Assembly (NCBI GenBank): GCA_965216155.1
Contig: CBDCFD010000007.1
Coordinates: forward strand, 528,526 to 592,525
DNA from: Dehalococcoidia bacterium
GTDB taxonomy: Bacteria > Chloroflexota > Dehalococcoidia > Lucifugimonadales > UBA3495
Length of the DNA: 64,000 nt
Direction of reading: 5' to 3'
Part shown: positions 2,788 to 62,487 of the stretch, piece by piece
Layout of the letters: the number at the start of each line of letters is the position of its first letter
Numbering within the stretch: the first letter of the stretch is position 1
Program-made: the position numbers and the translations under genes
The notes under the pieces: generated by a model
What the model was told of the DNA's origin: nothing
Database searches by the model: none
Seen by the model: only the letters and a program-made list of their open reading frames with translations

Positions 2788-3563
2788 TTATTCTTGCCCG
2801 TTCACCTCCTGTTCCTGACCCCGCTGCTGAGCGACTCCAGTGCGGTAGCTTGGGACGTCGAATTCAAGGATGACCGAGTGGTGGACCACCCGGTCGATGG
2901 CCGCCGCAGTGACCATGGGGTCGGCAAAGATATGCTCCCACTGGGAGAATACCAGGTTGGACGTGATGCCCAGGGAGCGACGCTCGTGGCGTTCGGCGAT
3001 GAGCGTGAAGAGCACCTCGGATTCCTCGGCACCCTGGGGCAGGTAGCCCAGGTCGTCCAGCATCAGGAAGTCGTAGATGTCGAGCTTGCGTAGTTGTCGT
3101 GGGCGCCCGGTACCACTTGGCCGCCAAGAGGTCCTGCACCAGCCGGTAGGCCGGGGCGAAGAGCACCGAGCGTCCCGATTCCACCAGCCGGTGTCCGACG
3201 GCGCACAGTGCGTGGGTCTTGCCGGTGCCGGGCAGCCCAAAGGCGAGCACGTTGACGCCGCGCTCGACGAAGTTGCCGCCAGCCAGTTCACCCAGTTGCT
3301 GCTGTAGCGCCAAGGGGGCACACGGTCGCGCTCAAATGTCTCCCAGGTCTTGCCCGAGGGCAGCCTGGACTCCTTGCGGAGTTTGTTGATCCGCCGCCGC
3401 CTCTATCCTCGGCCTCCTGCTCCAGCACTTCCAGGAGGGTCTCCAGGGCGTCGCCGTGGCTGGCGGCGGTGAAGCGGTTCACCGACTGCACCCCCATGGT
3501 GGGCAGCCGGAACTGATGGCACAGCTCACCAATCCGGACCTGAATCGCCACGGTGTCGGTCAT
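2788..3563 (-). pseudogene. istB: IstB type B with at least 2 frameshifts
   Basis: Three overlapping frames carry MTDTVAIQVRIGELCHQFRLPTM..., then GLPGTGKTHALCAVGHRLVESG (Walker A), then LMLDDLGYLPQGAEESEVLFTLIAERHERRSLGITSNLVFSQWEHIF. Confidence 0.8.
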
Positions 3564-7307: not shown

Positions 7308-7685
7308 ATGGGTCAAGCTCACGACCGCGAGGGAACGGCAATGGGCAGCACGGAAGCACCGACGGCATATCCGGCCACATCGGACGAAATGACGACTGCC
7401 CTGACCGCGGCCCTGGAAGCGGGCGACCACGTATCAAGTACGGGGCAGGCTCTGGACCGGATAATGGGCACCCTGTGGCAAATGACCCGCGCCCACCGGA
7501 TGAGACGGGTCGCCCAGGAGACCGGCCTGGGACGGGAGAGTCTGTACAAGTCCATGCGGGCCGGGGCAAGCCCCGAGTTCAACACCGTGATCAAGGTTCT
7601 GCGCGCCCTGGGCTTCCGCCTCCAGGCCGTCCCCCTCGCCGAGACTGCTGACCACCACAATCGCCAAAATCCGAACCCACAATGA
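7308..7685 (+). CDS. HTH DNA-binding protein of the addiction-module antidote type (COG3636/HigA-like)
   Basis: C-terminal RVAQETGLGRESLYKSMRAGASPEFNTVIKVLRALGFRLQAVP matches the conserved core of the putative antidote family. No partner toxin ORF was found upstream. Confidence 0.7.
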   Translation: MGQAHDREGTAMGSTEAPTAYPATSDEMTTALTAALEAGDHVSSTGQALDRIMGTLWQMTRAHRMRRVAQETGLGRESLYKSMRAGASPEFNTVIKVLRALGFRLQAVPLAETADHHNRQNPNPQ

Positions 7686-8574: not shown

Positions 8575-10323
8575 ATGTCAGAAACCATCCCCGCAGTAAG
8601 TGAAGAGACTATATCAGACTGGGTAGGCTCACGGAGTTTCCAACTCGGTCGAAGCTACTTCGAAAATGAGGCTATCTTCGACCCTCGCCGCCAAGGCAGC
8701 TCCCTCAAAGCCTGCTGCCAAGGCTCCATGCCCCAGCCTTATCGCTTGGGCGTTGCCTTCGGCGCCGAAGGCATCGAAGAGGCCAATTGTTCTTGTCCGG
8801 TGGGTGACGGTGGACATTGCAAGCACGTCGGGGCGCTCCTGCTTACCTGGTTGGACCAGCCCGACGCCTTCCGAGTGGTGGCGGAACCGGACGCCGGCCT
8901 GGAGCAACGCAGCAAAGAAGAGCTGATTGCCCTAATCAAGCAAATGCTGCGGCTTCAACCCAACTTGGAGACCCTGTTGGAAGTTGCTTTGCCCGGAGGC
9001 GACCGGCGGCGCACTCCGGTCAACTCGGAAACCTACCGTCGCCAGGTATCGTCTGCTTTTCGACGTGGCGGGAACGATTGGATGGTGTCCTGGAGAATTG
9101 CCACGGACATTGGCATTACCGTGAGTGCTGGCGACGGTTTTCTGGCCCTGGATGACTACGCCAGCGCGAGTATCGTGTACCAAGCAGTGGCCCAGGGGAT
9201 ACTGGAACATTACGAGATGATACATGACGAAGATGGGGACCTGGGCGAAGTGGTGGACCGATGCGTGGAAGGGCTGGGGTGCTGCCTGGCCGGTGCGGGT
9301 GACGACGCCGCAGCCAGGGAAAGACCCCTGCAAACCCTCTTTGAAATATACCGTTTTGATGTGGACTATGGAGGGGTTGGCTTGGGAGAAGCTGCGCTGG
9401 ACCTTATACTAGAACACGCCACCGGAGAAGAGAAGCGCGCCGTTGCCGGTTGGGTGCGGGCCGCCATGCCCGAGGGTAATAGCTGGAGCGACAACTATCA
9501 CCGCCAAGTGTACGGCCGTTTCTTGTTGGGCTTGCAGATGGCTGACTTGGACGACGCCTCCTTCCTAAGCATTTGTCGTGAGAGCGGCCGTTTGGCCGAT
9601 TTGGTGGGCCGCCTGCTGACGCTGGGGCGGTTAGACGAAGCGATATCCGAAGCCGAGCCGGCCGGGGACTACGAGTTGCTGGCCCTGGCGGACATATTCC
9701 GCGAACATGGCTACGCCCAAAGCGTGGAACCGTTGTTGGTCAAGAGGATTGAAACCAGCCAGGACCATCGCCTGGTGGAGTGGCTCAAGGAACGCCACAA
9801 AGAACGGGGAGAACTGGCTGAAGCCCTGGCCCTCGCCAAACGGCTTCTCCAAGCACGCCCCTATCTCGCCGGGTATCAAGAGGTACGAGAGATGTCCCAG
9901 CAACTTGGTGTCTGGCAGGAATTGCGTCCGGATCTGCTGGACGAGTGGTCCGCCGCTAAGCAATACGGTCTGTTAACCGACATTTACCTGGAAGAAGGTG
10001 ACATAGACCTGGCTTTGAAATCGGTGAAGCAAAGAAAGCCGGGTTTTCTATATGGCGAAGACCAGTTAATCCGAGTGGCCCAATCTGCTTCGGAGACGCA
10101 TCCCCACGCTGCCGTTGACATCTATCTGCAACAAGTGGAGAGCCTGATTGAGGCCCGGGGCCGGGACAACTACCAGCGGGCGTGTTCGCACCTGATCAAA
10201 GTGCGAGACCTATACCGGCAACTCTCGGGGGAGCCGGCGTGGACCGACTTTATCACCGAACTACGAGAACGGCATCGGCGACTGCCCGCACTGAAAGAGG
10301 AGTTGAGAAACGCTGGGCTGTAA
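8575..10323 (+). CDS. SWIM zinc-finger protein with a long helical C-terminal region
   Basis: 582-aa ORF with CSCPVGDGGHCKHVGALLLTW (CxC-x(n)-CxH SWIM motif) near the N-terminus. Confidence 0.8.
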   Translation: MSETIPAVSEETISDWVGSRSFQLGRSYFENEAIFDPRRQGSSLKACCQGSMPQPYRLGVAFGAEGIEEANCSCPVGDGGHCKHVGALLLTWLDQPDAFRVVAEPDAGLEQRSKEELIALIKQMLRLQPNLETLLEVALPGGDRRRTPVNSETYRRQVSSAFRRGGNDWMVSWRIATDIGITVSAGDGFLALDDYASASIVYQAVAQGILEHYEMIHDEDGDLGEVVDRCVEGLGCCLAGAGDDAAARERPLQTLFEIYRFDVDYGGVGLGEAALDLILEHATGEEKRAVAGWVRAAMPEGNSWSDNYHRQVYGRFLLGLQMADLDDASFLSICRESGRLADLVGRLLTLGRLDEAISEAEPAGDYELLALADIFREHGYAQSVEPLLVKRIETSQDHRLVEWLKERHKERGELAEALALAKRLLQARPYLAGYQEVREMSQQLGVWQELRPDLLDEWSAAKQYGLLTDIYLEEGDIDLALKSVKQRKPGFLYGEDQLIRVAQSASETHPHAAVDIYLQQVESLIEARGRDNYQRACSHLIKVRDLYRQLSGEPAWTDFITELRERHRRLPALKEELRNAGL

Positions 10324-11094
10324 TTTTGAGCCAGTGCCGGGAGTATGGCATCCTGGAAGGCTTGAGGTCCCCATTGAGCAATTGGTAGCTCACTCCGGTC
10401 ATCAGGTGGAGATGGTTGGCTCCGTTGGCCTCGGCGCTGCGTAGTCGTTGTGCCCAGCGTTCAGGAATCCAGATTAGGCCGATGGCGTCGCACATTTAGG
10501 CCAAGACATCCCTTGGGGAAAGTCTCACAATGCTACATGCTTTGCAGATTCCCTTTTCCTGTGCTACCCCGCCACTGCAAACCCGGCGGGGAGGGGGCTT
10601 TACGACGGCGCCGGGGAAATGCGCCGACTTGCTTGGTCCCACCTGGCCGCAAACGGGCGAAGGACACGCCGAGGAACTTCCCCTGAACCAGGTCCACCAC
10701 GCCGCCGTAACCGTCCCCGCTGGTGCTGCCGGTGGCGACTCTGCTGGCCCTGGCATTTGGGACCAGGGTGGAAGACGCCTTTGACCGGAAGATAGCCCCC
10801 GGCAGCCTGCGGTCCCCGCCCAAGTCGCTGGCTCCTACGCACCGCGGCCCCTGGCACCGGCCGGGACGGAGTGTCAGCGTAATCCATCAGGGCAGCGTCT
10901 GGCTGACCAAGTTGATGCACCGGGGCCGGCTCTGGAGCCGGGTGTGGCTGCTGCCCGAACCCTAGCCCAACCTGGAGGTCACCCGCCATGCCCCAGCTTG
11001 AAACCCCATACATACCCCTGTCAGCTTCGAACCAGGGCGATGGCATCGGCGAACATGGGGAGCGGCTGTTCAATCATCCGGCCAGTATCCGGCG

Positions 11095-12132
11095 TTAGCG
11101 GTTTCTATGCGAAATAGACCCAAAAGGCAAGGGTGGGTTTGAAACCCGCCCATCCGGTGTATCAGCACGAACAGCGTCATTAACCGGCCCGGATGCCGGG
11201 TGGTCAAAGTGGTGGCGTTCGGTGCAACCGTCCAGCGATTGCTCCATCTGTATGGTGACATGGGAGATGCCGAAATCCTGGTAGGCAATCTGTTGCAGCC
11301 GGCGTCGCAGAATTTCCAGCTCCCCCGGATAATCGGGGGCGACCAGTACGTGGGCGGTAAGTGACTCATAGCCGGAGGTAATAGTCCAAGCGTGAATATC
11401 GTGAACCAAGGTCACACCTTCCACGTTTTCCAGATCGTTGCAGAGCCGGTGCATATCCAGGTGGGCCGGCGTGCCTTCCAGCAGTACCTGAAAAACCTTG
11501 ACTACCAAACGCCAGGAACTGGCCAAGATAAGCGCCCCGATAAGCACTCCCAGAATGGGGTCGGCAATCCACCAGCCAAAGGCCAGCGCCAGGATACCGG
11601 AAATAACTACACCGATTGACCCCATCAGGTCTGCCACTACGTGCCGGAATGCGCCTTCAACGTTGAGGCTGTGCCCGGCGGAACGGCGGAGTATCCAGGC
11701 GGCAATCAGGTTGATGACAAGCCCCACACCTCCGGCAACCAGTACAATGCTGCCTTCCACCTCTGGGACTTCCCGAAAGCGGTGGTAAGCCTCGAAGAAA
11801 ATCCAGCCGGCAATCACCCACAGGCTGACGGCGTTGAACAGGGCGGCCAGCACCTCAGTGCGATAGTATCCGAAAGTGCGCTCAATTGAGGCCGGCCGGT
11901 TCGCAATCCACATCGCGAAAAGGGCCAGCCCGATGGCGGCGGCGTCGGTGAGCATATGGGCGGCGTCGGCCAGGAGGGCCAGGCTGCCGGAAAGGATGCC
12001 GGCGGCTGTCTCAACCGCCATATAGCCGGAAATCAGCGCGAGGGCAATCAGCAACCGGCGGCGGCTGGCCCCGCGGTAATCGTGGCTATGACCATCGTGG
12101 CTATTGTGCGCGTTGGGGCAGTCAGGCGTCAT
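11095..12132 (-). CDS. Cation diffusion facilitator (CzcD/ZitB-like) metal exporter
   Basis: N-terminal His-rich stretch, then SLALLADAAHMLTDAAAIGLALFAMWIANRPASIERTFGYYRTEVLAALFNA, typical of CDF TM2-TM3. Confidence 0.9.
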   Translation of the reverse strand: MTPDCPNAHNSHDGHSHDYRGASRRRLLIALALISGYMAVETAAGILSGSLALLADAAHMLTDAAAIGLALFAMWIANRPASIERTFGYYRTEVLAALFNAVSLWVIAGWIFFEAYHRFREVPEVEGSIVLVAGGVGLVINLIAAWILRRSAGHSLNVEGAFRHVVADLMGSIGVVISGILALAFGWWIADPILGVLIGALILASSWRLVVKVFQVLLEGTPAHLDMHRLCNDLENVEGVTLVHDIHAWTITSGYESLTAHVLVAPDYPGELEILRRRLQQIAYQDFGISHVTIQMEQSLDGCTERHHFDHPASGPVNDAVRADTPDGRVSNPPLPFGSISHRNR

Positions 12133-33021: not shown

Positions 33022-33265
33022 ACCACCAACTCCCCGCCCGTCTCCTTCCCCGCCAGGGGTCGCCAGCAAGACCTCGCCACGACGAAGCCCATGGGTCTCA
33101 TCCGGCCGGAAACTCCGGCCACAGGCAGGCAGCCTCCATGCCGTATTCCGGCGGCGGGATACCGCCGTCTTCGAGTCCGCAGTGGCCCAGTGGAACCAAG
33201 CCGGGCTCGCCAGGGGGACCGCCATTTGAGTGGGCGGCAAAGCCCCGCGAGAGCACACCCGGGGA

Positions 33266-33508
33266 TCAGCCGCCCACCGGCCTGAGGCGGCGCGCCAGGG
33301 CCTCAAGACCGGCGGTCCCGAGCGTCATGAGCAACACGGCCCCCAGGGTGAAGGGAGCCGTCATCATCGCCGTCAGCGCAAAGGCCTCGGGCTGAATTCC
33401 CCCAACCGGGACGTCCAGGACCCGGACCACCGCCACGAACCCGGCCCAGAGGGCCAGGAGACCCAGCCCCGCCAGGGCCACACGCGCCGTCCAACGATAA
33501 CCCTTCAT
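33266..33508 (-). CDS. Small two-TM membrane protein
   Basis: MKGYRWTARVALAGLGLLALWAGFVAVVRVL...FALTAMMTAPFTLGAVLLMTLGTAGLEALARRLRPVGG. A truncated paralogue lies at 51677-51800. Confidence 0.5.
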   Translation of the reverse strand: MKGYRWTARVALAGLGLLALWAGFVAVVRVLDVPVGGIQPEAFALTAMMTAPFTLGAVLLMTLGTAGLEALARRLRPVGG

Positions 33509-33777: not shown

Positions 33778-33931
33778 GCAAGCCCCGCAGAAGCGGGGAT
33801 GGACCACCTGTCCCTCGCGTGACCGCGGACAACCACGAGGAAAAACCCGCGGGCGCGGGGATAAACCATGCCGAAAGACAACCTCAGGCCAGAGCCCTCA
33901 CGCTCCCCAAACCCCGCGGCAAACACAACCA
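33778..33931 (+). CRISPR. Degenerate type I-E-like mini-array: two good 29-nt repeats plus one decayed unit
   Basis: GCAAGCCCCGCAGAAGCGGGGATGGACCA (33778-33806) and GAAAAACCCGCGGGCGCGGGGATAAACCA (33840-33868) are 62 nt apart. A decayed unit ends at about 33931. Compare the E. coli-type repeat GAGTTCCCCGCGCCAGCGGGGATAAACCG. Confidence 0.5.
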
Positions 33932-35478: not shown

Positions 35479-35706
35479 GCCGCCGCAGAGGGGAGGAGCA
35501 CCGCCCAGGGGTCCCGTGATAACCGACAGGAGGATAGACCCCGGCCCCGCAGGCGCGTGGATGGACCCCGGTGGAACAACACCTAGCCGGTACTCCTGCA
35601 GGAAACCCCGCGTCTACGTGCAGTAGGCCGAACTCCAGGCCGTACCTTCGAGGTCACCTTCCCGCTGCCGGAACCGAGCAACGCAGGCGGCCGTCCTCCC
35701 AGCAGG

Positions 35707-36048
35707 GTGAAACAGGCGAGGAAGACACCACGAAAAGGCTCCGCCAGTATACCTCCCAAGAAGACGACTCCAAAGGCCCAACAGACGAAGCCCAGACCTG
35801 AACCGGTTCAAGCCGGGGAGAGTCGTCGCGAGTACGAACGCCGGAGGAAACAGACTCCAGAGCGCAGGGAGCAGCGCCGCCTCCAGGAACAGGAACGACG
35901 CCGGAAGGTGAAAGAACAGGGACTCTGTGTGATCTGCCGCTTACCGGCCATACCGGACCAGAGCCGCTGCTCGACGTGCGCCGAAAAGCACAGGGCATCC
36001 CGAAGGAGGTGGCAGGCCCAACGGAGAAGCAAGAACAAGAAGAGCTAA
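35707..36048 (+). CDS. Small basic zinc-ribbon protein, paralogue R1
   Basis: 113 aa. ESRREYERRRKQTPERREQRRLQEQERRRKVKEQGLCVICRLPAIPDQSRCSTCAEKHRASRRR. Confidence 0.6.
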   Translation: MKQARKTPRKGSASIPPKKTTPKAQQTKPRPEPVQAGESRREYERRRKQTPERREQRRLQEQERRRKVKEQGLCVICRLPAIPDQSRCSTCAEKHRASRRRWQAQRRSKNKKS

Positions 36049-36074
36049 GAAAAGAGCCGCCCAGCAAAGGGACC

Positions 36075-36650
36075 ATGCCTACGGGCAGACCACGTCCCTC
36101 TGACAACACCCCAGACCCAAGCCGCGGACCCGTCGGGATAGACCCACCAGAAACACATACTTTTTTGCAGACCATCCTGTTACCGGAGCCCATACGCAAG
36201 GGCAAGAAGGCCAAAGGCCGACCACGTCCTGAGAAAGTCAAACAGCCAGTACGAAAGGCGCGAAAGCCGAAAGAGCCTCGCAAACCCTCCACAGATCCCT
36301 CTCTCAAGAAGGAAAAACCGGACCACCCGCCGCAACCCGATGAGAACGGGCAGGAAACCAACATTGGTGGCCCGGCAGCGCATGAAGCCAAGCTACTGCA
36401 ACGCCGTGAGTACGACCGGATAAAGAACAAGAGCCCGGAGCGCAGGGAGTACCAGCGGCAACTTGCCCAGGAACAGAGACAGAGGGCCAAGGAACTCGGC
36501 AGGTGCCGGAACTGCAGCAAGCCTGCCATCCTTGGCCAAACGCGATGCCCCACCTGCGCCGAGAATCACCGGCAGTCCCGCAGGCGCAGCGACGCCAACA
36601 GAAGGGCCGCGGCTGAAGAAACAGCACCAACGGGCCAAGCAGACCAATGA
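36075..36650 (+). CDS. Basic K/P/E-rich protein with a C-terminal zinc ribbon, paralogue R2
   Basis: ...LLQRREYDRIKNKSPERREYQRQLAQEQRQRAKELGRCRNCSKPAILGQTRCPTCAENHRQSRRRSDANRRAAA. The start is uncertain; the track ORF begins at 35976. Confidence 0.55.
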   Translation: MPTGRPRPSDNTPDPSRGPVGIDPPETHTFLQTILLPEPIRKGKKAKGRPRPEKVKQPVRKARKPKEPRKPSTDPSLKKEKPDHPPQPDENGQETNIGGPAAHEAKLLQRREYDRIKNKSPERREYQRQLAQEQRQRAKELGRCRNCSKPAILGQTRCPTCAENHRQSRRRSDANRRAAAEETAPTGQADQ

Positions 36651-38450: not shown

Positions 38451-39740
38451 TGTAATCGGCAGAGTTAAATTGGACCACGTGGGCGGATAAATCGCTGACG
38501 ATTGGCGGTTGAATTCCGTACGGCCTTCCGCCATCCATAGGGTCATTTTCGACCCCATGGAAGGTGCCAAGGATGTACCAAGTGGAATCGTATCTGCGGG
38601 TCTGCCGGGCGGTGATGGTGGAAGGCATGAGCATCCGGGAGGCTTCCCGGGTGTTCGGGTTGCACCGGGACACGGTGCGCAAGATGCTGGCCTACTCGGT
38701 CCCTCCGGGCTACCGGAGACAGACCAAGCCCCGGCGCCCCAAGCCGGAGCCCTTCACCGGCGTCATCGACCGGATCCTTGAAGAGGACCTCAGGCTTCCC
38801 AGGAAGCAACGCCACACGGCCAAACGCATCTTCGAGAGGCTCAGGGACGAGTACGGATTCGATGGTGTATCCACCATCGTCAAGGATTACGTGCGGGAAA
38901 ATCGCCGCCAGACCAGGGAGATGTTCGTGCCGCTGTCCCATCCGCCGGGCCACGCCCAGTGCGACTTCGGCGAGGCCCTGGCGGTCATCGGCGGCGTGGA
39001 GCAGAAGGCCCACTGCTTCGTCCTGGACCTGCCCCACAGCGAGGGCTACTTCGTCAATGCCTATCCGGGGGAGACCACCGAGGCCTTCCTGGGCGGAGTG
39101 CCCCGGAGCATCCTCTGCGACAATACCAGGCTGGCGGTGGCGAAGATACTGGAGGGCGGGCGCCGCCAGCGCACCCGCGGCTTCACCGAGCTTCAGTCCC
39201 ACTACCTGTTCAAGGAACGGTTCGGGCGTCCCGGCAAGGGCAATGACAAGGGTAAAGTGGAGGGCTTGGTGGGATACGTGCGGCGCAACTCCCTGGTGCC
39301 CATTCCGTCCTTCGAGAGCTTCGATGCCCTGAATGCCTGCCTGGAGCGGCTCTGCCTGGACCGGATGGATGCCAGGCTCAGGGGCCACACTGAGACCATC
39401 GGCCAGCGGATGGAGCGGGACCTGGAGGCCCTCCTGCCGTTGCCGGACACGCCCTACGACGCCTGCGACCAGCAGACCGGTCGGATCGTTCACTGTCCCC
39501 GGTGCGCTACCGCACCAACGACTACCCGGCGCCGGTGGCCTACGGACACCGGGAGGTGGTGGTGTGGGGCTACGTGGACCAGGTGGTCATCAGCTGCGGC
39601 GCCGAGGTCATCCCCCGACACCCTCGCTCTTACTAGAAGGACGATTTTGTCTTCGACCCCATCCACTACCTAGCGCTGTTGGAGCAGAAGACGGCGGCCC
39701 TGGACCAGGCCGCTCCGTTGCAAGGGTGGGAACTGCATGA
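38451..39740 (+). mobile_element. istA: IS21 type A, fragment 2 (left terminal repeat plus 5' two-thirds of istA). It has an internal 30-nt deletion, a frameshift and a stop, and is truncated near 39740.
   Basis: TGTAATCGGCAGAGTTAAATTGGACC matches the reverse complement of 62041-62067. The IstA sequence is collinear with 60447-61958, except that AFLDGHVSAFAFLGGVP is reduced to AFLGGVP and the frame changes near 39485. Confidence 0.85.
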
Positions 39741-40003
39741 GGAGAGCCAAGGAGAGGGTAGGGGGCCATGCGAAACCCCTCTCGGATTATCTGTTAAACG
39801 ATTTCGGTAGATGTGGAACGGGCAGCAGGGTCCATTGGCTGGTTCTGCCACTTTCGCCTGGCCCGCAGCTATACTGTCATACGCCTAGACCCGTTAATCT
39901 GACCAGAAAAGGCAGTAGTGTAGACTCAGGCGCAACTTCGGCAACTCCTGGATGGCATTGCTTTTTCGGGGTCAGACTCACACGGAGGAATGAGAAATCA
40001 TCC

Positions 40004-50958: not shown

Positions 50959-51614
50959 TGTCAAGGGCGGCGGGATGTTGGGCCATCAGGGCGGAGGAAA
51001 AGTGTACCACCCGGGTTGTTGACGTTCAGCGAAAAGGTCCGGGCTAACTGGCCAGCATAAATGTCCGTGACAGTTGTTGGTGGGAACGTGACGCAGACAG
51101 GTGTCCAGTACACCAGGGCAGGAGGAGGACGGTTTCTGGTGCGACCTACCCGTCGTCTTTGTTGTCTGGAACCTGGGACGCAGCGCTCTCCCTGCTTCGC
51201 TTGAGGCGGTAGCTCTCGCCGTTCATCTCCAGGATGTGGACGTGGTGGGTGAGCCGGTCCAGCAACGCTCCGATCAGCCGCTCCGAGCCGAAGACCTCGG
51301 TCCACTCGTCGAAGGGAAGGTTGGTGGTGACCATGATGGAGCCCCGTTCGTAGCGCTGGCTGAAGACCTCGAAGAGCAGTTCCGCCCCGGTGCGGGATAG
51401 TGGCACGAAGCCCAACTCGTCGCCGATCAGCAGCTTGAGCCGGGACAGTTGCCGCTGCAGGTTGAGCAGCCGCCTCTCATCCCTGGCCTCCATCAGCTCG
51501 TGCACCAGGCCGGCGGCGGTGGTGAAGCCCACCGGCATTCCCCGCTGGCAGGCGGCGAGGCCCAGCCCCTGGGCCACGTGGGTCTTGCCAGCGCCGCTGT
51601 TGCCGACGGCGATA
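50959..51614 (-). mobile_element. istB: IS21 type A, fragment 3 (terminal repeat plus 3' two-thirds of istB), truncated inside the Walker A region
   Basis: The end TGTCAAGGGCGGCGGGATGTTGGGCC is uninterrupted here. The IstB ORF 51146-51577 extends upstream to GNSGAGKTHV, and homology stops at about 51614. Confidence 0.85.
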
Positions 51615-51676: not shown

Positions 51677-51800
51677 TCAGCCGCCCGCCGACCTGAGGGC
51701 GGCGCACCAGGACCTCAAGACCGGCGGTCACAAACGTCACGAGCAACACGGCCCCCGTCCCGGACCGGACCACACTCACAGGAGCCGCATGGAAACTCAT
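51677..51800 (-). pseudogene. Truncated paralogue of the small membrane protein at 33266-33508
   Basis: About 88 nt (51668-51755) align with 33245-33330 (mostly identical by eye). It encodes ...GAVLLVTFVTAGLEVLVRR..., with a 1-nt difference removing the stop. Confidence 0.45.
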
Positions 51801-53039
51801 CAACGAACTACCCCTGGAGAAAAGGGCCGGAGCAGACGACAGGAAACTGTCGGAAGAACTGGATGCCGGCATCCTGGCAATCCTGGCCCCCCGCGTCCTC
51901 CGGAAAATGGGAAACAGACTCACGCCCGGGGGAAAACTGGAATGGTGGAACCAGGACGACGGGGCCAGGCCCCTGACCCTGGACTGGTACAACCCGGCTG
52001 CAGCGCCGGCGGAACTCCTTGAGGATCTGAGAAGGACGAACCCGGGAGCCCTGGCCTGGGTCTTCCACTTTGGCAGAACGCCCGAGGAAATCAGGCACCC
52101 CGAGCAGTTCATAGTGGAAGCCCGCAGGAGCATGGCCGAACACGGGATGGAAGGCAGGAACTGGAAATACGCCGCAGCCCTGCCCACGGACATTGCCTGG
52201 AGCGCCTTCGAGGGGCTGGGGCCTCGGCAGGCCGCCATGATGACGGACGGGATGGCCCGGGCCGGACACTACCCGGAAGAGAAATCGCCCAGCACTGCGC
52301 TGAGGCAGTCGTCAAGAACGGGACCATGGGGGAATGGGAACCGAGCCGGACGAGAGAGCAGAACGTCAGGACGGCAATCACCCTCTTCCTGCGGGAGGCG
52401 GAGGGGGCGGGCCGGGAAAAACTCTTTGAAATCAGACAGGACACACACGACATAATCGACTACGTCCGGAACGCTTCGAGAAGAAACGAGAGCGTGGGGG
52501 CGAAGACCTGGGGAGGACTCCGCAAGGCGTCAGAGAGATGGCACCGGGAACAGGCTGCGTTCTGGGCCGACGTGAGAAGGGCAAACCGGAAGGGCGGGAT
52601 ACTCGCGTGGAACTCCCTGCTGGGAGAGAACGAGGCCCTCGGGTTCCAACTCATACCCCTGACCGACGAGTGGCAACTCCTGGAGGAATCGGAGGAGATG
52701 GACCACTGCGTGGCGGACTACGGGCCGGGCTGCGCATCAGGACATTCCCGGATATTCAGCATCCGGCAGGACGGAAAGAGAGTGGCGGCGACGCAGATAG
52801 CCAACTGGGGCAGCGGCAGTTGGAGAGTGCAGCAGACCCGGGGCAGGAACAACGGTCCGGTGGGAGGGAAAGTCGGGCAGGCGGCGCTCAGCGCCGCCTC
52901 GGCATACACGAAACTGTGGAAACAGGAAGGAGCCGAACACAGATCCTGGACGGGGGGGAAACCCGGACCGGAACAGCACGGACCGGAACAGCACGGACCG
53001 GAACAGCACGGAGCGGAAGGGCCGGGGGAGAACGAGTGA
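51789..53039 (+). pseudogene. PcfJ-like (plasmid/conjugative-element-type) protein gene, apparently frameshifted
   Basis: C-terminal half: WNSLLGENEALGFQLIPLTDEWQLLEESEEMDHCVADYGPGCASGHSRIFSIRQDGKRVAATQI...QTRGRNN (PcfJ-type core). The N-terminal part lies in ORF 51907-52455, and an ATG at 51789 lies in yet another frame. Confidence 0.55.
52965..53009 (+). repeat. Perfect 15-nt tandem repeat x3 (GGACCGGAACAGCAC), encoding GPEQH x3
   Basis: Read directly at the 3' end of the PcfJ-like ORF. Confidence 0.9.
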
Positions 53040-53095
53040 GGAAGGAAGAACACGAGGACCGGACCGGGCAACCCCCGTCTGGGGCCAGACCGAGA

Positions 53096-53306
53096 GGGGA
53101 CCCCGCCCACGCGGGGATAGACCCCTGGACCACTTACCCGCGCCGGTGGACACCGCGGTTCCCCCGCTCCGGCGGGGATGAACCCTCGCCGCAAACGGCT
53201 CAAGGAATGGCAGATCAACAGACCCCGCAGGGCGGGGATGAACCTTTGCAGATCTGGCTCCGGCGGAGGGACTGTCCGCAGACCCCACTCCTGTGGGGAT
53301 GAATTC
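53096..53306 (+). CRISPR. Degenerate type I-E-like CRISPR mini-array: 4 repeats of 29 nt and 3 spacers of 31-32 nt
   Basis: R1 GGGGACCCCGCCCACGCGGGGATAGACCC, R2 GGTTCCCCCGCTCCGGCGGGGATGAACCC, R3 AACAGACCCCGCAGGGCGGGGATGAACCT, R4 GCAGACCCCACTCCTGTGGGGATGAATTC, starting at 53096, 53157, 53217 and 53278. Confidence 0.6.
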
Positions 53307-59398: not shown

Positions 59399-59670
59399 AG
59401 TGGGGAAAGCCGGGCGGTCCGTTTCCAATACTGCGGCCTCGGATTAACGATATAGAATAAGCCACTATCCGGTGATGAGGTGTGGCGGTGGCAGGACTCA
59501 GGGATGAAGTGGCGCAAGTGGCCCGTTGGTCCGATGGCATTAAAGGTGTCAATGGCGCTGACAAGTTGGGCCACTGGGGCGGTGGAATCGTGTACCACTG
59601 GCCTGATGACTGTCAGCAGTAAATTGGTCGGAGTGGGGACGTTACAGGAGGAGGGAGCGTTGACGGTGCG

Positions 59671-60450
59671 TTATGCGTCGTCCGGTTCGTCTGACAGATG
59701 GGAGGGGGCGGTCTCCCTACTGCGTTTGAGCCTGTAGCTCTCGCCGTTCATCTCCAGGATGTGGACGTGGTGGGTGAGCCGGTCCAGCAGCGCTCCGGTG
59801 AGCCGTTCCGAGCCGAAGACCTCGGTCCACTCGTCGAAAGGGAGATTAGTGGTTACCATGATGGAGCCCCGCTCGTAGCGCTGGCTGAAGACCTCGAAGA
59901 GCAGTTCCGCGCCGGTCCTGGAAAGTGGGACGAAGCCCAGCTCGTCGATGATCAGCAGATTCACCCGTGACAGTTGCCGCTGCAGGTTGAGCCGCCGCCT
60001 TTCGTCTCTGGCCTCCATCAACTCGTGGACCAGGGCGGCGGCGGTGAACCCCACCGACATGCCCCGCTGGCAGGCGGCCAGGCCCAGCCCCAGGGCCACA
60101 TGGGTCTTGCCGGTGCCGCTGTTGCCGGCGGCGATGACGTTTTCACGGCGCTGGATGTATTCACACCGGGCCAGTTCCATCACCAGGGCCTTGTTCAGCG
60201 ATGGGATGGCTGGAAAGTCGAAAGTGTCTGGACTCTTGACTGCGGGAAAGCGGGCGGCCCGGATCCGCCGTTCCACCATGCGCTGGTGGCGGTCGATGAG
60301 CTCCAGTTCGGCGAGGCGCAGCAGGTACTCCGGGCGGTCCACACCCTCGACGGCGCACTGCGCTGCCATCTTCCCGTATTCCCTGAGAAAACTGGGCAGC
60401 TTCAGCTCCTTCAGGTTGTGTTCCAGCAGCAGCGTCGACCGGTCGTTCAT
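59671..60450 (-). CDS. istB: IstB helper ATPase
   Basis: MNDRSTLLLEHNLKELKLPSFLREY...GNSGTGKTHVALGLGLAA...LLIIDELGFVPL... intact. The start overlaps the istA stop. Confidence 0.9.
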   Translation of the reverse strand: MNDRSTLLLEHNLKELKLPSFLREYGKMAAQCAVEGVDRPEYLLRLAELELIDRHQRMVERRIRAARFPAVKSPDTFDFPAIPSLNKALVMELARCEYIQRRENVIAAGNSGTGKTHVALGLGLAACQRGMSVGFTAAALVHELMEARDERRRLNLQRQLSRVNLLIIDELGFVPLSRTGAELLFEVFSQRYERGSIMVTTNLPFDEWTEVFGSERLTGALLDRLTHHVHILEMNGESYRLKRSRETAPSHLSDEPDDA

Positions 60451-61958
60451 GCCGCTCTCCCCGACAGCAAGGTCATGTAGTCCCCGGCGGACGCGGTGCT
60501 CACACGGACCCGGGGCATGTAGGGATAGATCTCCAGGTCCAGCCTGGGCGGCCGCCCCTCCAGCCGGCACAGCACCAAGTGTTTCACGGCGTCGAAGCTG
60601 ATGGCTCCCTGCCGGAGGGCATCCTTTACCGCTGCAGCCACCTCCTGCTGGGAGAAGGCCTCCAAGAGCCTCAGCACCTGGACGAATTCCCGCTTGCCCC
60701 GTCGTCCCATCCTGGATTCCAGCAGCAGCTGCAGCGTGTCGAACTCATCGGGCAGAGCCCAGCCCTGCAACGGCGCGGCCTGGTCCAGAGCTCCCGGCTT
60801 GCGCTCCAGGAGCGGCAGGTAGTGGACGGGGTCGTAGACGAAGTCGTCCCGATCGTATGATCGGGGGTGTCTGGCGATGACCTCAGACCCGCAGCTGATG
60901 ACCACCTCATCAACGTAGCCCCGAACCAGGACGTCCCGGTGTCCGTAGGCCGCCGGCACGGAGTAGTCGTTGGTCCTGTACCTTACCAGCGACAGGGAAA
61001 TCACCCGGCCCGACTGCCTCTCGCAGGCGTCGTAGGCTACTGGCGGCAGCGGCAACAGGGCGTCCAGGTCCCGCTCCATCCGATGGCCGATGGTCTCCGT
61101 ATGTCCCCTGAGCTTGGCGTCCATTCGTTCCAGGCAACGTCGCTCCAGGTAGGTATTGAGCGCATCGAAGCTCTCGAAGGACGGCACCGGCACCAGGACG
61201 TTTCGGCGCATTTATCCCACCAGGCCCTCCACCTTGCCTTTGTCGTTGCCCTTGCCGGGGCGTCCGAACCGGTCCTCGAACAGGTAGTGAGACTGCAGCT
61301 CGGTGAAGGCGCGGGTGCGTTGACGCCGGCCGTCTCCCAGGATCCTGGCCACGGCCAGCTTGGTATTGTCGTAGAGGATGCTCTGGGGCACCCCGCCCAG
61401 GAAGGCGAACGCTGATACGTGCCCGTCCAGGAAGGCCTCGGTGGTCTCCGCCGGGTAGGCCTTCACGAAGCAGCCGTCGCTGTGGGGCAGGTCCAGTATG
61501 AAGCAGTGGGCCTTGCGCTCCACCCCGCCGATGACCCATAGGGCCTCGCCGAAGTCGCACTGGGCGTGTCCCGGCGGATGGGACAGCGGCACGAACATCT
61601 CCTTGGTCTGGCGGCGATGCTCTCTTACATAGTCCTTGACTATGGTGTAATGACCGTCGAATTCGTACTCGTCCCTGAGGCGCTCGAAGATGCGCTTGGC
61701 GGTGTGGCGCTGCTTCCTGACCACACGCTGGTCCTCTTCAAGGATACGGTCGATGACGCCGGTGAAGGGCTCCAGCTTGGGACGCCGGGGGGTAGTCTGC
61801 CTCCGGTAACCCGGAGGCACGGAGTAGGCCAGCATCTTGCGCACCGTGTCCCGGTGCAGACCGAATGTCCGCGCAGTCTCCCGGATGCTCATCCCCTCCA
61901 CCATCACCGCCCTTCGGACCCGCAGATATACGTCCACTCTGTACATCCATCGCACCAT
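60447..61958 (-). pseudogene. istA: IstA transposase with one in-frame TAA (61212-61214)
   Basis: ORFs 61212-61958 and 60447-61211 are contiguous in one frame. VEGLVG*MRRN corresponds to VEGLVGYVRRN in the copy at 38564. Confidence 0.85.
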
Positions 61959-62487
61959 CCATGGGGTCGGCTACAACCCTATGAATGATGGAGGGCGGCA
62001 TAGTATTCAGTCGCCGATACTCAGCAATCTTCCGCCCACGCGGTCCAATTTACCTCCGCCGTTTACACTCTGCCACAGGGAATATCTTCTTACTTTGGTC
62101 AATCATTGCTTTTGCTCCTCCATATCTGTTTGGTCCGTCGCACCACCCTGTGGCAGACGTTTTTAACCCGGGCAGTGCGACTCACCGACTCCTCACCCCT
62201 GGGCTTTCGATCCACCCTCTTGTTACATTACTGCTTTGATATTACCTCACTAGGTTGATGATTATCTCCTCGTTTACGGGACGGTCGTGCCTGCGCAAAG
62301 TCTCTGGGGCGGCCTTTCCGCGGGAAAACGTTTCGGCAGGGGTTTCCGCGAGGTCCTGCGGTAGCTGGCCGAGCTCGCCGGCGTCGTGCAGCTCGTCCCC
62401 CGCGGAAAGTGCCCGTTTTAGGCAGGGTTGAGAATCGCTCAGAATCGCAAAATCTCGGACTGCGGGGAATGAGCCCTGAAAAGGCGT

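Follow-up and report, generated by a model that had tools for sequence, protein, structure and literature searches.

Degenerate type I-E-like CRISPR units in a Dehalococcoidia chromosome: a probable relic of a mobile-element family with a stand-alone cas6e

This study deals with four degenerate repeat units, R1–R4, at positions 53096–53306 of a 64,000-nucleotide stretch of contig CBDCFD010000007.1 (the window, read on its forward strand), which belongs to the chromosome of a Dehalococcoidia metagenome-assembled genome (MAG). The units are probably the remains of a type I-E-like CRISPR array that came from a family of Dehalococcoidia mobile elements, of which the window copy would be an inert relic. 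In the elements of this family, coding is on one strand, and the gene content includes a class II ribonucleotide reductase, PcfJ proteins, a large C5 methylase, a stand-alone cas6e and many orphan genes. Since the repeats of the window array are far from identical, no cas genes accompany it and its spacers match no foreign DNA, the array is regarded as a relic and not as a working array. An initial annotation, made from the sequence alone, had offered two readings: a decaying orphan array, or repeat mimics of the RNA anti-CRISPR kind. The first comes closest for the window copy, with the correction that the array is element-borne and lies in a truncated, pseudogenised element, and is not a host array. 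The second is not needed in view of the long, regular, leader-bearing arrays, the spacer turnover and the protospacer match found in the relatives.

The array in the window

The units, their spacers and two upstream relics are listed below, with the scores of a covariance model that was built from an alignment of 32 units and run over the window with the filters off.

53040–53067, + strand: possible decayed leader remnant, GGAAGAACACGAGGACCGGACCG (leader of the active arrays, TGAAGAATATCACGCCCGAAGG); the similarity is weak and is common to array 3 of the relative L088
~53068–53092, + strand: R0, a partly deleted relic unit, GCAACCCCCGTCTGGGGCCAGACCG, recognized by alignment and orthologous to the first unit of L088 array 3
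53096–53124, + strand: R1, GGGGACCCCGCCCACGCGGGGATAGACCC; CCCCGC/GCGGGG stem, CCAC loop, tail ATAGACCC; 31.6 bits
53125–53156, + strand: first spacer
53157–53185, + strand: R2, GGTTCCCCCGCTCCGGCGGGGATGAACCC; TCCG loop; 32 bits
53186–53216, + strand: second spacer
53217–53245, + strand: R3, AACAGACCCCGCAGGGCGGGGATGAACCT; 3-nt AGG loop; 37 bits
53246–53277, + strand: third spacer
53278–53306, + strand: R4, GCAGACCCCACTCCTGTGGGGATGAATTC; CCCCAC/GTGGGG stem, tail ATGAATTC; 33 bits

The units are 28–29 nt long and start 61, 60 and 61 nt apart, with spacers of 31–32 nt, and each of them has a CCCCRC/GYGGGG stem and a GGGGAT(A/G)(A/G)A(C/T)(C/T) tail, the stem change in R4 being compensatory (a G–C pair replaced by an A–U pair). 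The array begins 56 nt after the end of a PcfJ-like open reading frame (ORF; 52326–53039). The initial annotation had described the four starts in array geometry, the hairpin and 3' handle kept in all units, the double change in R4 and the distance to the ORF, all of which were confirmed, the stems and tails lying far beyond chance. The pattern CCCCRC-N3-5-GYGGGG has five matches in the 64-kb window, four of which are R1–R4, against 0.55 expected, and none of 100 shuffled sequences reached five, so that a chance origin of the units was rejected; the tail pattern is likewise overrepresented in a pattern scan of the window.

The mean pairwise identity of R1–R4 is only 0.66, compared with 0.92 in the core of L088 array 2. 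No cas gene was found in the window, as the initial annotation had stated, either in the gene and Pfam tables covering 4.9–64 kb or in a tblastn search with Cas6e; for the first 4.3 kb, Pfam was applied to two of the three ORFs of at least 150 aa (587–1279 and 2788–3321), the third (454–999) overlapping 587–1279 in another frame. The absence of an AT-rich leader also held, the 56 nt upstream of R1 having 68% G+C, and the only trace of the leader motif is GGAAGAACACGAGGACCGG, a weak resemblance about 20 nt before R0. The array matched none of the CRISPR-DR families of Rfam, at the gathering threshold or at E values up to 10, and the exact sequence of R4 had no match in the metagenomes of the Joint Genome Institute (JGI).

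The decay of the units is strongly uneven. When the window units and L088 array 3 are each compared with the canonical repeat of the family, changes are found at 69–83% of the loop positions and 35–49% of the 5' flank positions, but at only 4–12% of the stem positions and 4–14% of the positions of the ATGAACC tail (Fisher test of loops versus stems and tails, p ~1e-6 for R1–R4 alone and 2e-27 pooled). Ascertainment bias is limited here because an intact hairpin occurs at every position of the 61-nt lattice. In the alignment of 32 units, 92% of the stem cells are paired, against about 50% when the partner strand is slid, and the covariation is modest, with three compensatory cells. Since the loops are close to random while stems and tails are kept, the features for Cas6e binding and for the 5' handle have been retained.

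The initial annotation took this structure-preserving variation as a sign of selection on the RNA hairpin. The structure is indeed kept far beyond what uniform decay would leave; however, the old end of a long ordinary type I-E array (L087, JGI contig Ga0207700_10002036) is also stem-preserving while degenerate, with drift in loops and flanks and the CCCCGC/GCGGGG stem kept. As the decay pattern is the same, it is by itself no pointer to a mimic; what it speaks for is that the units once served as guides, and mimicry is not singled out by it. L087 differs in being one long array with a canonical leader-proximal part, whereas the window array is short, degenerate throughout and placed in an element stump. 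It was the sole match in a search of the JGI metagenomes with CAGACCCCGC-N4-GCGGGGATGAACC and is an unrelated array, used as a comparator only; the same search of IMG/VR gave no match.

The units also share segments with other arrays. The loop types AGGC, AGAC and AGG(G) recur across arrays and elements, and the core of R3, CAGACCCCGCAGGGCGGGGATGAACC, is identical to one repeat copy of the related element locus L089. The tail of R1 equals that of the repeat of a complete type I-E locus (L092/L093), and the 5' half of R2, GGTTCCCCCGC, is identical to the same repeat; these two identities suggest that whole repeat–spacer units may have been exchanged between arrays. Of the two copies of the complete locus, the array of L093 (12146–15717) has a regular period of 61 nt; that of L092 (12145–15226) is irregular, with truncated units, and looks like a product of long-read assembly error.

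The closest intact relative

The closest homolog of the PcfJ-like protein lies on a 3.38-Mb contig, in the locus L082/L088. The 20.6 kb of L088 contain, in order:

class II ribonucleotide reductase gene
stand-alone cas6e (1696–2394)
array 1 (~27 units)
five genes without known relatives
array 2 (~18 units)
gene for a 766-aa protein
PcfJ gene
array 3 (7 units)
further genes without known relatives
gene for an 826-aa C5 methylase
helix-turn-helix (HTH) gene
array 4 (6 units)

All called genes of L088 except two small ones are on the + strand, which has 10.5% T. Its four arrays comprise about 58 units in total with 32-nt spacers, and the core repeats read GCAGACCCCGCGCCAGCGGGGATGAACC with a pairwise identity of 92%. 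This repeat of the intact relatives includes the core CCCCGCGCCAGCGGGGAT, which is the repeat that the initial annotation had quoted, and its assignment to the type I-E repeat family is upheld by this core and by the Cas6e described below. Array 3 follows the PcfJ gene and consists of seven degenerate units with a period of 59–62 nt. The stretch from the PcfJ stop codon to the first unit can be aligned between the window and L088, and array 3 is, as judged from this alignment, the ortholog of the window array.

The DNA upstream of the window array shows the same kinship and its state of decay, as seen in the following features.

51119–51613, − strand: IS21 IstB fragment, which cuts the element stump at its left side, abutting it at 51613
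51742–52423, + strand: remnant of the 766-aa gene, detected by tblastn and tblastx; truncated, frameshifted and read in three frames
52326–53039, + strand: PcfJ-like ORF; Pfam PF14284, E 1e-5, 25.8 bits against a cut-off of 25

The homology between the window and L088 is limited to 51742–53028 (tblastx with a bit-score filter). The remnant corresponds to the last third of the 766-aa gene, and 52416–52970 of the PcfJ-like ORF are homologous to the L088 PcfJ gene with 80% amino-acid and 86% nucleotide identity. Because the 766-aa gene is truncated and frameshifted, an IS21 fragment abuts and no Cas6e homolog is present, the segment 51.6–53.28 kb is regarded as a decayed element stump. Thus the claim that the array is carried by mobile-element DNA is supported both by the thymine-poor composition of the segment and by its homology to the L088 element. 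The PcfJ-like protein has only four homologs among 5.8 billion proteins searched and no relatives in IMG/VR. At the 3' end of its ORF, a 15-nt tandem repeat (52964–53018, 3.7 copies) encodes PEQHG repeats. A near-identical contig, L001, differs from the window by a 10-nt deletion in this tandem repeat and by one base in the second spacer; the deletion shifts the frame, and the gene caller therefore ran the PcfJ ORF into the array.

An element family with its own Cas6e

The element Cas6e matches PF08798 over its full length (E 1e-29) and reaches 62 bits with TIGR01907, above the cut-off of 45.2. When it is aligned with annotated CasE proteins, one histidine and a glycine-rich loop are invariant, the histidine being at what we take to be the catalytic position of the Escherichia coli and Thermus CasE proteins; in a PDB search, only the C-terminal half was aligned. 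Its nearest relatives are found in the loci L094 (98% identity), L090 (84%), L089 (80%) and L091 (~50%), where a common neighbourhood of NrdR, reductase, giant proteins with PcfJ domains, stand-alone cas6e, array and methylase recurs. The genes of the family lie nearly all on the + strand (in L090 up to ~10 kb), and the T content is 10–16% in L089 (from ~2 kb on), L090 (to ~10 kb) and L091. No other cas gene was found within 6–10 kb on either side of the family cas6e genes or in the 20–24 kb of element DNA examined. In L091 (ERZ25766727 ctg343966; 10001–10705 and downstream), the stand-alone cas6e is accompanied by an intein-containing ribonucleotide reductase and two PcfJ-domain proteins of ~950 aa, and no array was detectable in the 10 kb downstream.

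The strand asymmetry, with ~10–13% T against 22–27% A on the coding strand, extends over tens of kilobases and is common to the window segments and to L083, L088, L089, L090 and L091, the array spacers being less thymine-depleted (16% T). L083 is a thymine-poor PcfJ locus with two tRNA-Arg genes (7405–7478 and 11466–11541, anticodons TCT and TCG), which fit a phage-like nature. No units were found in the PcfJ loci L083 and L084, both with 38–41% identity, and the link between PcfJ genes and units therefore holds only in the close relative.

In L088, L089, L090 and L094, an array follows directly after cas6e, and its first repeat is abutted by a leader, TGAAGAATATCACGCC(C/A)GAAGG, common to all four. 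Between L094 and L088, the end of cas6e and the leader are 100% identical, and yet none of the first three spacers is shared; the fourth spacer of L094 recurs deeper in L088. Comparison of the two arrays thus presents the signature of ongoing, leader-polarised spacer uptake, with new spacers evidently entering beside the conserved leader. In addition, the spacer that stands first behind the leader of L088 array 2 agrees in 30 of its 32 positions with a gene without known relatives that adjoins a ParB–methylase gene in a sister genome of the window. Because the leader-proximal spacers differ and a spacer matches another mobile element, the family arrays are considered to be live CRISPR arrays and not mere mimics. 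Spacers are also duplicated within arrays (2855–2951 and 3042/3289 in L088; 11011/11316 and 11559/11633 in L089), which indicates internal recombination or duplication of repeat–spacer units.

Proposed mechanism and points of difficulty

In an intact element, the arrays are probably co-transcribed with the genes, since they lie between genes and in the gene direction. Cleavage by the element Cas6e would fall at the 3' base of every CCCCGC/GCGGGG hairpin and would release guide RNAs of ~61 nt with the 5' handle AUGAACCN and a 3' hairpin. A type I-E Cascade, coming from the host or from a stretch of the element outside the loci examined, would then take up the guides and be directed by them against rival mobile elements. 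The stems and handles of the window units look processable if Cas6e were supplied in trans. We further propose, tentatively and with some doubt, that the element carries only the guide-making half of a type I-E system, namely a stand-alone, apparently active Cas6e and at least four leader-bearing arrays that are interleaved with genes and still acquire spacers; Cascade, Cas3 and Cas1–Cas2 would be borrowed from the host for use against rivals, the window array would be a fossil of this arrangement and the kind would be previously undescribed. Our literature search found no stand-alone Cas6 or Cas6e accompanied by arrays on a mobile element, which is no proof that none has been described.

Several results weigh against this account. 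Neither the window nor any of the element loci showed Cascade, Cas3 or Cas1–Cas2. The only complete type I-E operon found (L092/L093) comes from the same sample series, but its repeat, GGTTCCCCCGCACGCGCGGGGATAGACC, differs. Despite flanks that are 86% identical, the spacers of the window array and L088 array 3 are identical at a random level only and every loop differs too, so that simple in-place decay fails to account for the differences. Only one of the ~54 L088 spacers has a match, and for the three window spacers no protospacer turned up among GenBank phages and PLSDB plasmids or in related loci amounting to ~1.9 Mb; the search against viral and plasmid databases that the initial annotation had suggested therefore came out negative. 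No sigma-70-like promoter was found in 51.5–53.8 kb, where it should be considered that Chloroflexota promoters may differ. The class of the element is likewise poorly constrained: searches with PHROGs and Pfam on ten L082/L088 proteins matched the methylase only, Cas6e and the 766-aa protein had no match in GenBank phages and a profile of the element Cas6e found no relatives in IMG/VR, leaving phage, plasmid and integrative element all as candidates.

Alternative explanations

The units could instead be decoys of the type of the RNA anti-CRISPRs (Racrs), transcribed by the element to bind the Cas6e, Cas5 and Cas7 of the host in dead-end complexes and thereby to weaken its type I-E immunity. 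Racrs that act on type I-E systems have been demonstrated to work (PMC10651486), and the units lie on mobile-element DNA, next to a PcfJ-like gene and, in the relatives, near a large orphan methylase, which are typical anti-restriction neighbours. Moreover, stem and 5'-handle part are conserved with randomised loops, and R1 and R2 resemble the repeat of the complete type I-E locus from the same sample series. However, the described Racrs are solitary, whereas the window units keep an exact repeat–spacer geometry with 31–32-nt spacers; the family owns a cas6e and, in its leader-bearing arrays, has both turnover of spacers and a match to a protospacer; the aged ends of ordinary arrays also decay with their stems preserved; and the window copy sits inside a pseudogenised stump. 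A decoy function is consequently thought unlikely.

A second possibility is that the hairpins serve as RNA-processing punctuation, in which Cas6e cuts the long one-strand transcripts between genes and so sets the stability or translation of the messages, the spacers being filler. Many of the wider gaps between genes are indeed filled by units or arrays, without exception oriented as the genes are, an RNA endonuclease is the only Cas protein seen, the degenerate arrays keep only the features needed for recognition by Cas6e and L091 has a stand-alone cas6e without a detectable array. One hairpin would, however, suffice for this purpose, whereas arrays of 16–27 units with strict 32-nt spacers, a leader and polarised turnover have the features of adaptive arrays, and the conserved ATGAACC tail is the 5' handle of Cascade. 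A 5' handle of the ATGAACC type is dispensable for cutting by Cas6e in type I-E systems. Punctuation as the role of the hairpins is very unlikely.

A similarly small chance is given to a decayed orphan array of the host chromosome that came to lie beside an inserted gene by accident. Such an array would fit the lack of cas genes in the window, the degeneracy of the repeats (mean pairwise identity 66%) and the presence of R4 in the sister genomes; but the array is orthologous, jointly with the PcfJ gene and the intergenic stretch upstream of the units, to the L088 element segment, the base composition is that of the element and the array is missing from more distant relatives that share the ABC-transporter neighbourhood.

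It is highly improbable that the hairpin units are recombination or attachment sites of the element, with R4 as a hybrid junction, for although the homology to the sister genomes L002 and L003 starts exactly at 53283 behind three unrelated left flanks, one of them a thymine-poor element, the units have no integrase or recombinase beside them, a common end sequence is absent from the left flanks, the abundant IS21 copies can account for rearrangements and the element boundaries of L089 and L090 show no unit.

Comparison with known systems

Against this background, the interpretation as the relic of an element-borne array may be compared with the systems already described. The window array and the family resemble the type I-E arrays of E. 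coli and Thermus (repeat GAGTTCCCCGCGCCAGCGGGGATAAACCG) in repeat length (28–29 nt), spacer length (32 nt) and period (61 nt), in a GC stem of 6 bp closed by a loop of 4 nt and in a 3' ATNNACC segment, which turns into the 5' handle of the guide RNA; the intact relatives also have a Cas6e belonging to the CasE/Cse3 family, and the core CCCCGCGCCAGCGGGGAT recurs unchanged in the canonical repeat of the family. In contrast to those arrays, the window array has no nearby cas genes, a repeat identity of 66% and at most a decayed leader, and in the family Cas6e is the only Cas protein seen near the arrays, several of which occur per element, interleaved with genes.

The mini-arrays that viruses carry for use in inter-virus conflicts are limited to one or two spacers and come without a processing enzyme (Medvedeva et al. 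2019, PMC6858448; viruses of Bathyarchaeia, PMC10541130). The likeness lies in cas-less arrays on a mobile element with repeats compatible with a cellular system, in at least one family spacer that matches another mobile element and in the presumed reliance on effector and adaptation proteins of the host; the window array is itself short, cas-less and on an element remnant. The intact elements differ in having up to ~27 units per array, at least four arrays and their own Cas6e, and in their bacterial hosts (Dehalococcoidia). Racrs, which are single repeats often found close behind a promoter and in the vicinity of acr genes (Camara-Wilpert et al. 2023, PMC10651486), likewise are repeat-like hairpins on mobile elements that keep the features for Cas6 and the proteins binding the 5' handle. 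Being encoded on a virus or plasmid is a property of Racrs that the window array shares, as it lies in a thymine-poor mobile-element stump. It is not solitary, as Racrs are: its four units stand in exact repeat–spacer register, no promoter was found, the genes around it are without known relatives, and genuine active arrays occur in the family.

There are known cases of mobile elements with cas-less arrays, of viruses with isolated Cas4 or Cas2 genes and of single-repeat RNA decoys. What sets the element family apart is its own Cas6e together with many arrays that lie between genes and show signs of spacer uptake, effector and adaptation genes being absent over ~24 kb. Should the proteins that are lacking come from the host, the family would clearly exemplify how a mobile element takes over the adaptive immunity of its host with its own guide factory, and would also offer a natural test of the interchange of Cas6e and repeat variants between Cascades. 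The lesson of the window is modest, namely that a mini-array which is degenerate but keeps its hairpins may be what is left of such an element and not a working mimic, and the element family is of higher interest than the window locus.

Other units and surroundings in the window

The covariance model found only seven units above 28 bits in the window, all on the + strand and all confined to two thymine-poor segments, ~33.0–38.4 kb and 51.6–53.28 kb, both with an AT skew of 0.2–0.55 on the + strand. The first of these segments is a second element remnant. Besides R1–R4, the units are as follows.

33778–33806 and 33840–33868, + strand: A1 and A2, a second mini-array with units 62 nt apart; 36 and 33.4 bits
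35540–35568, + strand: B1, a nearly solitary degenerate unit with tail fragments at 35505–35535; 28.7 bits

These units, R0 and the thymine-poor mobile-element setting had been missed in the initial annotation; A1, A2 and B1 came to light through the fifth match of the hairpin pattern and through the scan for tails. The mini-array A1/A2 is intergenic, upstream of a histidine-kinase gene (called start 34177) in the thymine-poor segment, and B1 lies between this gene and a zinc-ribbon gene. Since the zinc-ribbon gene is homologous, B1 is the positional ortholog of the three-unit array after the cas6e of L090. Homologs of the zinc-ribbon gene occur after the cas6e array in L090 and before R4 in L003. 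In the window itself, the zinc-ribbon ORFs 35707–36048 and 35976–36650 are overlapping paralogs with the motif RREYER...C..C....P....RC..C. Marginal matches of the model were seen at 36124–36145 and 33238–33272. In 1.63 Mb of related and unrelated loci, nothing except copies of R4 scored above 21 bits. A dispersed family resembling repetitive extragenic palindromic (REP) elements, which the initial annotation had named as the finding that would overturn its proposal, was therefore rejected: the seven units lie in two segments and none is dispersed over the 1.63 Mb.

The array is adjoined by an ABC-transporter gene, by which the window is assigned to the chromosome of a Dehalococcoidia MAG; near-identical MAGs and MAGs with 84–92% relatedness exist. 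The homology to the sister genomes L002 (12382) and L003 (12383) begins at 53283, the first base of the R4 hairpin, and the left flanks of this junction in the window, L002 and L003 are mutually unrelated, that of L003 being another thymine-poor element with a zinc-ribbon gene. The junction may reflect recombination at repeats or a site-specific event. One sister genome has the ABC-transporter block in duplicate, L003 and L039 being parts of a single MAG. IS21 copies or fragments (IstA/IstB) are found in the window at 2370–2752, 38451–39744, 51119–51613, 59645–60135 and 61585–62071, two of which border the thymine-poor remnants, and transposase fragments of IS21 and other kinds are numerous overall.

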